A stretch of DNA of 64,000 nucleotides, from NCBI GenBank assembly GCA_963804165.1, contig CAWDPO010000020.1:1-64000 (forward strand). The letters are read 5' to 3'. Under the pieces are notes generated by a model, which worked only from the letters and a program-made list of their open reading frames with translations, made no database searches and had not been told where the DNA came from. Shown here in pieces: positions 1,401 through 47,121 of the stretch; positions within the stretch are counted from its first letter, which is position 1; every line of letters begins with the position of its first letter. The DNA is from an uncultured delta proteobacterium (GTDB taxonomy: Bacteria > Desulfobacterota > Binatia > UBA9968). The translations under genes and the position numbers were made by a program.

Positions 1401-1444
1401 GAATCCATAGGCACGAGGCAACAGGCATTAGGCAAGATCAAGAT

Positions 1445-1523
1445 CGTTTAAAACGTTCAAGCGTACAACGGCTTTGCGAAGCCTGTCGTGAGCGTAGTCG
1501 AAGACCTCAAGCCGTTCAACGTT
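1445..1523. repeat. Intergenic short-period CGTTCAA-like repeats around a REP-like core CCTGTCGTGAGCGTAGTCGAAG
   Basis: cgtttaa / cgttcaa / cgtacaa / cgttcaa units, with the core at 1482-1503. Confidence 0.5.
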
Positions 1524-1637
1524 ATCTAGGGTCAAATTCGCGCCGTGGTGCACGGTCCCTTCCGCAGCACTTGACAGCATGGGGCGCGCAGCCCTAACAG
1601 TGTGGTTGTAGATCAATAAGAAAGAAGGAGCGAACCG

Positions 1638-2681
1638 ATGGCGGTGATCGATGCTGACGCGCATGTCGTAGAGTGGGAGCGAACCTGGGAATACATGGAT
1701 GAAAGTGAGAGGGCCTTGAGGCCCCGCGTCATGGTGTTTAAAGACGCGGCTCAGAAGCCTTCCGGTCAGAGGGCAGGCGAATACTGGATGATCGGCGGCC
1801 GGGTGTTCGCCAAGGACAGCAACATCGGTTTTGACATTCCCAAAGAGAAGCGCGAGGCGGCGGATATAGAAGCCCGGCTCGCCCACATGGATGACCTCGG
1901 CGTGGACGTTCAGGTCCTTTATCCGAGCCTGTTTCTCAGAATGATGACAGCCTTGCCGCACGTCGATGCGGCGCTATGCAAGAGTTACAACCGCTGGCTC
2001 GCGGCTATTTGGCAGGCCGGCAAAGGTCGGCTGCGCTGGGTGGTGATTCCGCCGCTGCACTACATGGACAAAGCTATCGAAGAATTAAACTTCGGCAAAC
2101 AGAACGGCGCCTGCGGTGTTTTTATACGCGGAGTGGAAGGGGACAAGCTTCCCACCGACCCATACTTTTTTCCTCTGTACGAAGAGGCCAGCCGGTTGGG
2201 GATGCCGATTTGTGTGCACGCCTCACAGGGAAACTTGGAGATGTTCGACGTCTTTGGCCGGGGCGCCAGTCTCGCCCAGTTCAAGTTCGGCCCGATTAAT
2301 TTGTTCGCCAGTCTTATCGGCGCCCGGCTGCCGCAAAAATTTCCAGACTTACGCTGGGCTTTTGTCGAGGTCAGCGCCGAATGGCTTCCCTACGTGATGA
2401 ACCACATGGAGATTGGCACCCGCAGGCAAGGGAATGCTTGGCGCGACCAGGATCTCCTCAAGGACAACCATATCTATGTCGCCTGCCAAACGAGTGATGA
2501 CCTGCCTTATATTCTGGAACACGTGGGTGATGACCATTTAGTCATAGGAACGGACTACGGCCATAACGATACTGCCTCAGAGATCAACGCGCTGAGAAAA
2601 CTCAAAGCAGACGGGAAGATCGCCGCCGCGTCGATCGACAAGATCCTCGGTACCAACTCGCAGGCCCTGTATGGACTGTAA
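1638..2681 (+). CDS. Amidohydrolase_2 family metal-dependent hydrolase/decarboxylase
   Basis: IDADAH metal motif, ICVH, GTDYGH; AAGGAG SD. Confidence 0.9.
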   Translation: MAVIDADAHVVEWERTWEYMDESERALRPRVMVFKDAAQKPSGQRAGEYWMIGGRVFAKDSNIGFDIPKEKREAADIEARLAHMDDLGVDVQVLYPSLFLRMMTALPHVDAALCKSYNRWLAAIWQAGKGRLRWVVIPPLHYMDKAIEELNFGKQNGACGVFIRGVEGDKLPTDPYFFPLYEEASRLGMPICVHASQGNLEMFDVFGRGASLAQFKFGPINLFASLIGARLPQKFPDLRWAFVEVSAEWLPYVMNHMEIGTRRQGNAWRDQDLLKDNHIYVACQTSDDLPYILEHVGDDHLVIGTDYGHNDTASEINALRKLKADGKIAAASIDKILGTNSQALYGL

Positions 2682-42110: not shown

Positions 42111-44096
<1,986 letters not shown>

Positions 44097-44213: not shown

Positions 44214-44840
44214 ATGCGGATCTTAATCTACGGTTTCGGTCCCTATCGCCAGTTCCGCGAAAATATCACGGCAAAAATTATCGACGCGTTGCCGCGGCGC
44301 GCGGGGCTTAAGAAGCTTGTCTTCCCGGTCAGGTTTCAGCGCGCGCCATTCGTTCGAGCCTTGAAGCAGCATCATCCGGACATCGTCGTCGGTCTCGGAC
44401 AGAGTTCGCGGCGGGCAATTGAAATTGAAACTAGGGCAGTCAACCGTCGAAGCGTCAGGACACCGGAAAAACTAAGACCTATCTTTACCAGGGAAAACAA
44501 ACAACTGGCGACGACTCTAAACTTGAAAGGCCGTTGGGCGAAAATATCGAAGGACGCTGGTGATTACGTCTGTAACTATTCGATGTACGTGATGTTGCGT
44601 GAAATTGTCCGCGAAAACTTAAATGTCTCGTTCGGGTTTATTCACATACCGCACGATTACAACGAACGCACAGCGCAACGATTCATCGAAGGAGTACTGC
44701 GCCAGTGTTACCGATCAGGGGCGGTAAGAATAACCCACCGTGCGACCAAAGTTTCCTCGCGCGGCACGAAGGTGCTTTCCCCACCGGGCCGGTCAAGGTC
44801 GCGCACAGGCTTTGCTCAATCTAACGGGTTAGGCGCCTGA
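44214..44840 (+). CDS. Pyroglutamyl-peptidase I (C15) family protein
   Basis: [31 protein letters not shown] (Glu/Cys/His triad). Confidence 0.8.
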
Positions 44841-45690
44841 GTGCCTCAAGATATTTTTCCTGGGTTTTCTTGACGATCTCCGGCGGTAGCGCAGGTGGCG
44901 GCGATTTCATATCCCACGGGAGGTTGAGCAAATAGTCGCGCACGAACTGCTTGTCGAAACTATCGGGAGTTTTTCCCGGCGTGTATCCGTCCGCCGGCCA
45001 AAAGCGCGACGAATCGGGAGTCAGCACCTCGTCGATCAGGAGGATGCTATCCCCTTCGATACCGAATTCGAGCTTGGTGTCGGCGATGATGATCCCTTTT
45101 TTTTCCGCCAGATCGCGCGCCCGGCAATAAATCGCGATGGTCGCGTCGCGCATCTTTTCGGCTCGTTGCCGGCCGATTTTACCGATCATATCGTCGAACG
45201 TAATGTTGACGTCGTGGGCGCCCACCGGTGCTTTGGTCGACGGAGTAAATATGGGTTCAGCGAGTCGCGATGCTTCCATCAGTCCATTTGACAGCGATAT
45301 GCCGCACACCGAGCCGGTCTGTTGGTAATCTTTCCAGCCCGAGCCGGCCAGATAACCGCGGACGATGCATTCCGCCGGCGCCGGCAGGCTTTTTTTGACG
45401 AGCATCGATCGGCCCTCCAACGCGGCTTTGTGTGGCTGGCAGACGGCCGGAAATTCTTCGACACGAGTCGTGATGAGGTGATGGGGCACGATACCTTTGA
45501 CGATGCCGAACCAGAATTCAGACATCGCCGTCAGAATTTTGCCTTTATCGGGGATCAGCGTGGGCAGGATCACGTCGAAGGCAGAGATGCGATCGCTGGC
45601 GACTAACAAGAGCTTGTCGTCTAAATCATAAATGTCACGGACTTTCCCGCGGTTGAATAACTTCAGCCCGGACAGGGTTTCGTCAGTCAT
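44821..45690 (-). CDS. purC: SAICAR synthetase
   Basis: [43 protein letters not shown]. Confidence 0.97.
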
Positions 45691-45981
45691 GTGGTTGAAC
45701 CTTTCTGCTAAATTCGGCTGTCATGCTTAGCGGCGCGAAGGTCGCATCGAGACAACTTCTATCCACACCATATCGTTCCGATCGTGTCAATTTATGAATG
45801 TTGAAATCTCAAGATCCGATGGGCGACAATTTAGGAAAAAAGGGGCGACGTGAACTTGCCCCGTGGCGTCGATGCACAGGGCAAGTCCGTTGCAAAGTGA
45901 CGCGCAGAACGGACAGCGTCGCCGATGGCGGGCGCCTAGACGACGCGGTCTCGGTTTGTCAGTAGCAATGATCGAGGGAAC

Positions 45982-46086
45982 TTATTTTTTCTTTATCTTA
46001 CTCTTGAGCGATTCCACTCCGATCATCAGAGCAAGAAGACCAAACCCGGAGGCTAGGATCCAAACGAGGGGTTCCCACTTTCCCAT
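45982..46086 (-). CDS. Unannotated 34-aa single-pass membrane peptide MGKWEPLVWILASGFGLLALMIGVESLKSKIKKK
   Basis: Strong SD AAGGAGG just before the ATG; hydrophobic core with a basic tail; shorter than any ORF in the track. Confidence 0.7.
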   Translation of the reverse strand: MGKWEPLVWILASGFGLLALMIGVESLKSKIKKK

Positions 46087-46099
46087 TTTCTCCTCCTTG

Positions 46100-46149
46100 C
46101 GAAAACGGACAGGCCAGCTGATCTCGATGGATCAGCTGGCCTGTCCGTT
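46100..46149 (-). terminator. Perfect 20-bp hairpin immediately upstream of the peptide SD
   Basis: AACGGACAGGCCAGCTGATC (46104-46123), 6-nt loop, GATCAGCTGGCCTGTCCGTT (46130-46149); on the minus strand it ends in a short TTTT run. Confidence 0.65.
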
Positions 46150-46206
46150 AGTTAGTCCCTCCGCGATATGCGAAGGTACGACCTAATTTACCTGCCCGCT
46201 ATCTAA

Positions 46207-46247
46207 AATAAAAAAGCCGGCCTGAAACACGGTTTCTCAGGTCGGCC
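46207..46247 (-). terminator. Intrinsic terminator of the riboswitch-like leader
   Basis: Minus strand GCCGACCTGAGA-loop-TTTCAGGCCGGC then TTTTTTATTTT. Confidence 0.8.
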
Positions 46248-46249
46248 TA

Positions 46250-46293
46250 TTTCCCAACTGGTTGAGTTCGGTCCACGCCAACCCTTCGGAAAA
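46250..46293 (-). ncRNA. Riboswitch-like aptamer, resembling the DUF1646 (Na+-sensing) motif
   Basis: Minus strand TTTCCGA AG GGTTG...CAACC AG TTGGGAA (P1, AG/AG internal loop, P2); GGTTGGC can alternatively pair with the terminator arm GCCGACC; class assignment from memory only. Confidence 0.55.
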
Positions 46294-46309
46294 TCGTCAG
46301 ACGGTTGTT

Positions 46310-46338
46310 TTTATAAAAATTACCGGCGCAAATGTCAA
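46310..46338 (-). promoter_or_regulatory. Sigma70-type promoter
   Basis: TTGACA-N17-TATAAA on the minus strand; the -35 box overlaps the DUF2294 stop codon. Confidence 0.7.
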
Positions 46339-46712
46339 GACTCCTTTCGACGCGCCAATAGCTTCTCGAGATTGGTTTCCAACGTGAAAACAAACACCCG
46401 CTCTCCTGAAGCGGTGCTGATGTCGGTATGCAAGTCCAAGATCTTCACGCCGGAAATGTCGCCGACGACCTGATCGAGAAGCGGCCGCGCTTTTTCGATG
46501 AGGATCGCGCGCATCTTCTTAACCAGCTCACCGCCATCGGTGGTCTTTGTCAGTTGTTCCTCGGCCGGGGTCAAAACACCTTTGAGCCTGACGACGAGCA
46601 TGTCTTCGATGATGTGGGCGCGCGCTTCTTTTGGGCCGCGCCCCATGTAATCGATTTCAAATTGGACGAGGGCGCGGCTGATTTCCGCTTCGATTTCACC
46701 TTTGGTTTTCAT
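46335..46712 (-). CDS. DUF2294 / MpsC-family protein
   Basis: KGEIEAEIS...YMGRGP...LKGVLTPAEEQL...LHTDISTASGERVFVF. Confidence 0.88.
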   Translation of the reverse strand: MKTKGEIEAEISRALVQFEIDYMGRGPKEARAHIIEDMLVVRLKGVLTPAEEQLTKTTDGGELVKKMRAILIEKARPLLDQVVGDISGVKILDLHTDISTASGERVFVFTLETNLEKLLARRKES

Positions 46713-46773
46713 GCGCAAGCAGTGCGCTGCGAGAACGCGCCGGAGCTACGGCCGTCCGGCGCGAGATGATCAT

Positions 46774-47121
46774 TCAAAGAATTGCTTTGACTTCGGCTTC
46801 GTTGAAGCCCGTGAGCTTCTGCTTGCCCTTGATGATGACGGGGCGTTTGAGCAAATTGGCGTCCTTGAGCATAAGCTTGATTGCCTCGTCTTTGGAGGGC
46901 GGCTTTTGCTTCATGTTTCTTTCCCGATAAAGCGGCGTTCGGGTATTGAGAAAACGCTCGATCGGCTCTTCGCCGATCAGGTCGCGCAGCTCTTTTTCTG
47001 TGAAGGGACTTTTGCCGTATTCGCGCTCTGCGAAATCGATTTTTCTTGATTGCAAGAAACTTCTTGCTTTGCGGCAAGTCGTTCACGTCGCCTTATAGAT
47101 AAATTTGACCTTGTCTGCCAT
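46774..47121 (-). CDS. ArsC/Spx-family thioredoxin-fold protein with in-frame TGA (putative selenocysteine, UxxC)
   Basis: ATG 47121: MADKVKFIYKAT-TGA(47083-47085)-TTCRKARSFL...LLKRPVII...GFNE. Confidence 0.8.

Follow-up and report, generated by a model that had tools for sequence, protein, structure and literature searches.

Transcription attenuators in which a trans-acting factor decides between a terminator and an antiterminator are a known principle of bacterial gene control. The antiterminators BglG, SacY, LicT and GlcT act on RAT hairpins; the regulator gene lies upstream, a promoter follows, the leader hairpin overlaps the 5' arm of the terminator, and stabilisation of the hairpin leads to read-through. 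HutP of the Bacillus subtilis hut operon is a small single-domain protein of about 120-150 aa, encoded directly upstream of a terminator that gates metabolic genes, and it binds single-stranded UAG repeats. Among the riboswitches, the Na+ (DUF1646) and Li+ (nhaA-I) classes use a single hairpin with conserved internal loops, the 3' side of which overlaps the terminator, as an ON-type platform, and are not known to have a fixed upstream protein gene. Here we describe a leader RNA directly behind a DUF2294/MpsC gene on the minus strand of contig CAWDPO010000020.1 of an uncultured delta proteobacterium (assembly GCA_963804165.1; positions 1 to 64,000, the whole 64-kb stretch being called the window below). 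Both the RNA family and its candidate protein partner are new. Judged from its sequence, the leader is a promoter-proximal terminator/antiterminator attenuator with two mutually exclusive, covarying helices. It is tightly co-inherited with DUF2294 and adjacent to it, and the pair of RNA and mpsC is probably an undescribed gene-control system, because the conserved leader lies directly behind mpsC in many phyla and mostly ahead of CO2-related genes.

The locus shares with licT-bglPH the order of regulator gene, promoter, antiterminator/terminator and target, and the 3' strand of its long RNA rod (alignment columns 86-95) overlaps the terminator (columns 88-96), which is a likeness of mechanism only. 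DUF2294 has neither a CAT nor a PRD domain (PF10057 only) and its binding is predicted, its RNA forms a longer rod, beginning with the 5' end of the transcript, with a purine-rich 3x3 loop and a sequence family of its own, and the targets are carboxylation and inorganic-carbon genes, in contrast to the sugar phosphotransferase system genes of the LicT systems. The likeness to HutP lies in the small protein encoded directly upstream of the terminator, which, once activated by a ligand, would block terminator formation. The differences from the hut operon are that a HutP domain is absent, that conservation resides in a base-paired, covarying rod, and that a separate promoter stands between the protein gene and the leader.

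The initial annotation had suggested a resemblance to the DUF1646/Na+ riboswitch. The Rfam 15 library, which includes both the DUF1646 and the nhaA-I models, yielded two tRNAs only in the whole window at gathering thresholds and nothing at the motif; at E<=10 the region 45850..46450 gave only miRNA-like noise on a perfect hairpin in a second leader copy (element B, below), and the homologous sites in ten loci of other phyla had no match at E<=1. Moreover, the genes downstream of the DUF2294 leader are mostly not ion transporters, with MnhE-like or NuoL-like genes in single cases only. Membership in either class is not supported: neither model matched, and, as regards the Na+ class, the downstream genes are mainly not Na+ transporters.

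Architecture and alternative folds of the leader

When 40 related genomes were searched with the stretch by BLAST, six members of the genus gave clear homologues and three genomes gave a second type; ten copies align with compensatory changes. Covariance model R1 was built on those ten aligned copies and model R2 from hits in loci chosen by their DUF2294 protein. The locus is laid out as follows.

46718..46335, minus strand: DUF2294/MpsC gene, a 127-aa open reading frame (ORF) from TTG 46718, with the likely start ATG 46712 and the stop TGA at 46337..46335
46338..46333 and 46315..46310, minus strand: TTGACA and TATAAA, 17 nt apart, a promoter-like element with a presumed promoter function
46302..46205, minus strand: leader element A, rod and terminator, about 98 nt; 92.4 bits with R1, 78.2 bits with R2 (E 1.6e-18)
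46302..46293, minus strand: 5' strand of the basal rod helix P0, GUCUGACGAU, pairing with 46250..46241, with covariation
46294..46249, minus strand: P1-P2 hairpin with a tandem A.G/G.A internal loop, the 'aptamer' of the initial annotation
46250..46241, minus strand: 3' strand of P0, AUAGGCCGAC, the switch segment, of which 46248..46241 doubles as the first part of the terminator 5' arm
46248..46205, minus strand: intrinsic terminator A, stem 46248..46214 and U-tract 46213..46205
46199..46102, minus strand: leader element B, a degenerate second copy with the rod GCGGGCAGGU/ACAGGCCAGC; 17.8 bits with R2 (E 3.6e-4 in 1.1 kb with filters off) and prefix folds
46086..45982, minus strand: gene for a 34-aa single-span membrane peptide, MGKWEPLVWILASGFGLLALMIGVESLKSKIKKK, the first gene past the leader, with the Shine-Dalgarno sequence GGAGGAG 5-10 nt upstream
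45690..44821, minus strand: purC (SAICAR synthetase), the next gene after the peptide gene

The minus-strand promoter, hairpin and U-tailed terminator that had been annotated at 46207-46338, directly behind DUF2294/MpsC, were all found in place. The composite TTGACA-17-TATAAA has its single match in the window here, against 0 expected from 100 shuffles; a simple promoter scan skips it, as its rule requires T at the last -10 position. The TGA stop of the DUF2294 ORF sits within the -35 hexamer, and the loci inspected in relatives have the same layout. Element A begins about 7 nt past the -10 hexamer and 33 nt past the stop codon, and consists, in this order, of GUCUGACGAU, the hairpin UUUCCGA-AG-GGUUGG...CAACC-AG-UUGGGAAA, AUA, and the terminator GGCCGACCUGAGAAAC...GUUUCAGGCCGGC followed by U6, the inner stem of which is also reported by a terminator scan (46241..46221). 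The RNAfold minimum free energy (MFE) structure of the 111-nt leader holds the hairpin, closed by UUGGGAA, together with the terminator at -37.3 kcal/mol (z -2.57; equalled by 4 of 200 shuffles). Among public RNA sequencing runs, none was listed as covering positions 45900-46800.

The second fold involves the very start of the RNA. The transcript 5' end GUCUGACGAU pairs with AUAGGCCGAC, the beginning of the terminator 5' arm, and because AUAGGCCGAC serves both P0 and this arm, rod and terminator are mutually exclusive. The rod was assessed in an alignment of 69 R1 hits from 80 protein-chosen loci, R1 itself modelling no pairing at the 5' end. Across its 22 pairs, 83.4% of the cells are paired, compared with 63.7% after shuffling (0 of 500 shuffles as high) and 26-41% with a slid partner, and the covariation score is 0.476 compared with 0.05-0.13 in the controls. 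In helix 2, the P1-P2 hairpin, 88% of the cells are paired and both-side changes occur in 15/15 pairs. The terminator helix is 96.7% paired, a count biased toward R1, whose model included this helix. RNAalifold, applied to 41 rods that were aligned independently with MAFFT and trimmed ahead of the terminator 3' arm, predicted the basal helix, P1 and P2 de novo. Both alternative helices can therewith be taken as established.

The universally conserved core amounts to about 10 nucleotides of one internal loop. Among the 61 plus-strand rows of the alignment it comprises G5-C91 (59 rows), N6.G90 (A.G in 43), A7.R89, G8.A88 (51), A9-U87 (53, with G-C in 5) and Y10-R86 (U-A in 25, C-G in 21, U.G in 12). 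The window copy carries the same core, G5-C91, N.G, A.R, G8.A88, A9-U87 and Y10-R86, followed by the overlapping terminator. The general features of an attenuator are thus present, i.e., a G+C-rich hairpin with a U-tract, closely preceded by a promoter and followed by a gene, and a conserved helix that sequesters part of the terminator.

The initial annotation had also proposed mutually exclusive folds, with GGUUGGC of the hairpin pairing with GCCGACC of the terminator 5' arm. The exclusivity holds for the rod and the terminator, and the two segments are indeed complementary; RNAfold chooses their pairing on 3'-truncated transcripts of the window. As a conserved competitor this helix was rejected, with 55.2% of the cells paired as against 55.7% after shuffling and 368 of 500 shuffles at least equal; the pairing is lineage-specific and lacks covariation.

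With its own promoter and a strong terminator, the leader would by default give rise to a discrete small RNA, and the very small ORF in the window has two terminators ahead of it. The terminated product of about 95 nt might accordingly act in trans as a functional small RNA, or as a decoy that titrates DUF2294, the downstream genes not being its targets. The rod 5' strand, however, covaries with the terminator arm, which is sensible for a switch only, and the leader is always upstream of and co-directional with a gene of a narrow functional set. Such an RNA would also be without an evident seed, because the apical loops of the rod are not conserved. We regard this as the least probable of the explanations weighed here and treat the leader as an attenuator acting in cis.

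The initial annotation had mentioned neither element B nor the gene for the 34-aa peptide. The design of element B is that of element A, with G-C and U-A pairs where A has A-U and U-A, and it overlaps a perfect 20-bp terminator hairpin (46149..46104) with a short U-run. Protein-level conservation of the 34-aa peptide is seen in a sister genome (MGQWEPIFWIIGSGVGFFALLMLFESLSTKKKKR), and other sister genomes encode a two-span protein of 52-54 aa (MNxTTYIIGG...) at its position; no known family was matched by the peptide (Pfam) or by the 52-54-aa protein. Between the peptide gene and purC, at about 45865..45760 on the minus strand, lie a terminator-like hairpin GGGGC...GCCCC-U6 and a promoter-like element AATTGACAC...TATGGTnTGGATA, which is invariant in three genomes. 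purC may have its own promoter in this element, and read-through control of purC is uncertain because both the conserved element and the hairpin precede it. Leaders of this family stand ahead of purC in other phyla as well.

At E<=1, R2 finds one locus in the 7.5-Mb genome, the leader at 46302..46205. Echo matches of R1 and R2 on the opposite strand (window 46241..46316, plus strand, 27 bits; also at other loci) are artefacts and not second genes, since the rod is nearly self-complementary in design. A 48-aa ORF that overlaps the leader (46247..46393) was rejected as coding because conservation tracks base pairing rather than codons.

Distribution of the RNA and its coupling with DUF2294

R1 detects the RNA in 14 of the 31 genomes of the genus and in 39 of the 123 genomes of the order, where it is confined to one family (38/89, with 0/5 and 0/28 in the other two families). 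Public records of the close relatives carry the labels of uncultured Syntrophobacter, Deltaproteobacteria or 'Binatia' metagenome-assembled genomes (MAGs). When loci were fetched by the DUF2294 protein alone from Elusimicrobia, Omnitrophota, Firestonebacteria and Planctomycetia, a weak R1 match on the same strand was nearly always present directly 3' of the gene. In these loci of other phyla the promoter is followed by 5'-GGAAGAYU, the hairpin, RUAAGCCAAC and the terminator; in the Desulfobacterota version in the window, that of a Syntrophobacter-like MAG clade, GUCUGACGAU takes the place of GGAAGAYU as the 5' strand. Homologues and compensatory changes, on which the earlier idea of a structured RNA depended, are thus found, and on comparative sequence grounds the leader is an uncatalogued RNA family, by now established, that covaries across many phyla. 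At the level of titles and abstracts, no paper was found that ties DUF2294, MpsC or YbcI to RNA or regulation, nor one that deals with the function of YbcI/PF10057; supplementary motif lists may name the motif otherwise.

Tandem second copies occur in 15 of 63 protein-chosen loci. Two MAG records of Anammoxibacter (L171 at 1420..1920, and L185) contain arrays of 3-4 head-to-tail leader copies, and in L171 the 6 kb upstream are free of DUF2294 genes. Leader deletions have arisen naturally in two cases. In L002/L079 (G020:C274) the 5' arm of the element A terminator joins the peptide ORF in its middle, and in L142 (G019:C15) the 3' end of DUF2294 runs straight into the middle of the gene for the small membrane protein.

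Co-occurrence of the motif with DUF2294, which the initial annotation had proposed as a check, was borne out by three counts. In the order, 36 of the 123 genomes have both the RNA and PF10057, 3 the RNA only, 5 the protein only and 79 neither. Several of the exceptions have particular contexts. Among the protein-only genomes, G087 and G080 show a weak copy behind the gene with filters off, in G064 the contig ends 70 nt past the gene, G073 is borderline, and in G019 a deletion joins the end of DUF2294 to a small downstream ORF. Among the RNA-only genomes, the copy of G066 lies at a contig end and G003 retains only the last ~30 nt of the DUF2294 gene; in G077, a genome of 99% completeness, the orphan copy is well-formed. 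Of 101 genomes sampled around an Omnitrophota genome, the same 2 contain the RNA and PF10057, and no others contain either. Five genomes of other phyla have exactly one RNA copy apiece, adjoining DUF2294, and the genome of the window has one DUF2294 gene and one RNA locus.

In the second count, made on 80 protein-chosen loci, R2 matches on the same strand 30-165 nt past the stop codon in 63 of the 77 that could be assessed; 47 of these matches are so by construction and 16 are new, because R2 was built from hits in those loci. The third count started from the RNA. A 20-base degenerate RNA pattern, with one genome per species, gave 55 stretches, of which R2 confirms 46, the other 9 looking like chance, and 44 were assessable for DUF2294. 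The gene ends at most 200 nt upstream on the same strand in 33 of these 44 loci, lies 0.4-3.6 kb upstream in 4, and is absent from the available stretch in 7. A hand-made tally of the 53 copies in the order, with one antisense echo dropped, places 38 directly behind a type-I DUF2294 gene, 6 as second copies in the same cluster, 8 elsewhere and 1 at a contig end. The orphan copies precede an ABC (ATP-binding cassette) permease operon, a binding-protein-like gene, and HdrA-like and MnhE-like genes. Two genomes are flagged as unpublished (G093, counted as 'both' and contributing 2 of the 53 copies, and G005, counted as 'neither'), and their omission alters nothing. The genomic coupling of the RNA with DUF2294 is hence established.

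Adjacency as such fits a DNA-binding protein as well as an RNA-binding one, and the promoter is always situated between DUF2294 and the RNA. DUF2294 could therefore be a DNA-binding or RNA polymerase-associated factor that acts at the promoter behind its own gene, with a leader that attenuates independently or constitutively, or according to transcription speed or NusA/NusG. What is conserved across phyla, however, is the transcribed rod with its compensatory changes and not the promoter sequence or the distance (30-165 nt), the rod is retained in orphan copies, and DUF2294 has no helix-turn-helix or other DNA-binding Pfam domain. We consider control at the DNA level improbable and prefer an action of DUF2294 on the RNA.

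The DUF2294 protein, the genes behind the leader and a proposed mechanism

The DUF2294 protein of the window matches PF10057 with E 3.6e-36 (124.1 bits, the curated cut-off being 23; positions 1-110 of the 111 in the profile), in agreement with its initial annotation, and is 55-82% identical to homologues in many phyla. Ten K/R columns are conserved in the family. A divergent second type, 27% identical to the window protein (PF10057 E 1e-8 to 1e-25), often follows the leader or a B-type copy (L003/L004 2196..2626; G356:C2:71512-71835; G274:C115); the genome of the window has type I only. The source name 'YbcI' occurs among the longer DUF2294 matches.

In B. subtilis, ybcI presumably lies near the ndhF-mpsB-canC operon. 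A preprint calls the regulation of this operon unexplored (bioRxiv 10.64898/2026.09.08.750065). In Staphylococcus aureus, mpsC is located behind mpsAB, the genes of the bicarbonate transporter, and mpsA expression is lowered at 5% CO2 (PMC6689103).

The genes behind the leader have a common flavour. Behind the protein-chosen loci, the 37 ORFs comprise 10 GTP-dependent phosphoenolpyruvate carboxykinases (PEPCK), 6 ABC permeases, 3 hexapeptide proteins, 2 PurC and 2 NuoL/MpsA-like proteins, and one each of PurE, DUF4914, a P-II-like protein, HtpX, Bax1-I, a cNMP-binding protein and a second MpsC. The 40 ORFs behind the RNA-chosen units include 22 PEPCK, 3 PurC, 2 PurE, 1 formate-dehydrogenase-like molybdoenzyme, 2-3 ferredoxins and 1 MpsC. 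The permeases are of the NitT/TauT type and the hexapeptide proteins score best against the gamma-carbonic-anhydrase/CcmM models, in both cases with scores below the curated cut-off. In the clade of the window the first gene past the leader encodes the small membrane protein (34 aa here, 52-54 aa in sisters), and in the second-type relatives it is an ABC permease. Nearly all these downstream genes consume or supply CO2 or bicarbonate. It is a reasonable inference that the signal is inorganic carbon (CO2/bicarbonate) or carboxylation status, because the downstream gene set suggests it and the published statements on S. aureus and B. subtilis fit; the CO2/bicarbonate flavour suspected in the initial annotation is thereby strengthened.

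The direction of the switch is suggested by the folds. By nearest-neighbour energies in the window, the terminator alone contributes -17.0 kcal/mol and P0 only about -2.6, so that termination would be the default and the rod would need stabilising for read-through. What competes with the terminator in a conserved manner is the transcript 5' end, paired with the terminator 5' arm, and a fully formed rod should therefore prevent rather than permit termination, which reverses the logic of the initial annotation, where a formed aptamer was to permit it.

We infer protein binding, the ON direction and the signal as follows. The stretch would be the 5' leader of a small transcription unit that runs from the promoter through leaders A and B to the 34-aa peptide gene, and possibly on into purC. 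Each leader would adopt one of two folds, either the long rod, in which the first ten nucleotides are paired to the start of the terminator 5' arm, or the hairpin plus intrinsic terminator. In an unaided leader the terminator would win and the unit would be OFF. DUF2294/MpsC made from the upstream gene would bind the rod, probably at the conserved purine-rich internal loop 5'-G-N-A-G-A-U / A-U-A-R-G-C-3', and keep the terminator arm within it, letting RNA polymerase read through (ON) in response to inorganic-carbon or carboxylation status. That DUF2294 binds the rod and prevents termination is our first-ranked reading, to which we give an even chance; it corresponds to the second alternative of the initial annotation, an (anti)terminator RNA recognised by the adjacent protein.

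Several observations weigh against DUF2294 as the binding partner, and some of them suit a riboswitch, in which the rod itself would bind a small molecule or ion (e.g., bicarbonate, Na+ or a carboxylation-related metabolite) and be stabilised against the terminator, DUF2294 being a functionally related passenger such as a pathway enzyme or chaperone. Simple hairpin-type ion riboswitches and tandem riboswitches exist, and for this reason the RNA alone could be the sensor; the architecture is of the ON type with an aptamer 3' strand overlapping the terminator 5' arm, and the tandem copies in 15 of 63 loci fit as well. The RNA is found without a PF10057 match (E<=0.01) in four genomes, G003 (88% complete), G066 (84%), G077 (99%) and G129 (91%), and the copies in G077 and G129 are well-formed; moreover, the 8 of 53 copies in the order are away from any listed DUF2294 gene and 11 of the 44 RNA-chosen loci are without an adjacent one. 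The protein has no recognisable RNA-binding domain: the Pfam scan gave PF10057 only, with no CAT, PRD, HutP, helix-turn-helix or other DNA-binding domain, no relative in the PDB was found by sequence or by profile, and a search for longer or fused forms gave 5 longer matches with no informative domain fusion. It is also near neutral, with a median isoelectric point of 6.8 in 54 sequences. With the terminator 3' arm blocked, a non-conserved alternative fold of the window leader (-22.9 kcal/mol by nearest-neighbour energies) beats the rod (-17.9 kcal/mol). Finally, in the S. aureus study, deletion of mpsC is without a growth phenotype and mpsC is then set aside (PMC6689103).

On the other hand, a riboswitch gives no reason for a fixed upstream gene in one orientation at 63/77 and 33/44 loci in many phyla, nor would joint gain and loss with DUF2294 be expected. 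The universal core of about 10 nt in one internal loop is small for a selective pocket, and no riboswitch model of Rfam matches. We hold an autonomous riboswitch to be possible, at clearly less than even chance, and place binding of the rod by DUF2294 ahead of it.

A more far-reaching proposal, which we put forward tentatively and think rather unlikely in its full extent, is that DUF2294/MpsC founds a new family of RNA-binding antiterminators, and that it responds to the state of inorganic carbon, be it CO2/bicarbonate or an intermediate of carboxylation. The protein and its rod RNA would make up a compact ribonucleoprotein switch, horizontally mobile, that serves genes of carboxylation and dissolved inorganic carbon supply (PEPCK, PurE/PurC, gamma-carbonic anhydrase, Mps/Dab-like transporters, ABC uptake) in more than ten phyla. 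If so, a dedicated attenuation system that responds to CO2 would be described for the first time, and MpsC would gain a function.

MpsC/DUF2294 (YbcI) is a widespread protein without an assigned function, and Rfam 15 has no entry for the RNA behind it. Should the two be a regulator-operator pair, a new RNA-binding protein fold or family would join the short list of attenuation proteins, and the tuning of PEPCK, the carboxylation steps of purine synthesis, carbonic anhydrase and bicarbonate uptake in non-autotrophic bacteria would be explained. If the RNA senses a ligand alone, it would represent a new riboswitch class. The module is compact (an RNA of about 100 nt and a 14-kDa protein) and directly testable, and could serve as a portable switch.

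Neighbouring genes

On the plus strand beyond purC lies thiC (42153..44096). This gene is often preceded by a thiamine pyrophosphate (TPP) riboswitch, and no TPP riboswitch was detected at the Rfam gathering score in the window, the region upstream of thiC included.

Just upstream of DUF2294, an ArsC-family gene (47121..46774, minus strand) contains an in-frame TGA at 47085..47083, in the context K-A-T-[TGA]-T-T-C-R-K-A, at a position where the family presumably carries CxxC. The same in-frame TGA, flanked by conserved protein sequence on either side, recurs in three related genomes, and a hairpin CUUGCC...GCAAG follows it. When the TGA is read as selenocysteine, the gene encodes a 115-aa protein starting MADKVKFIYKAT, and it is probably a selenoprotein gene that ORF callers truncate to 93 aa.

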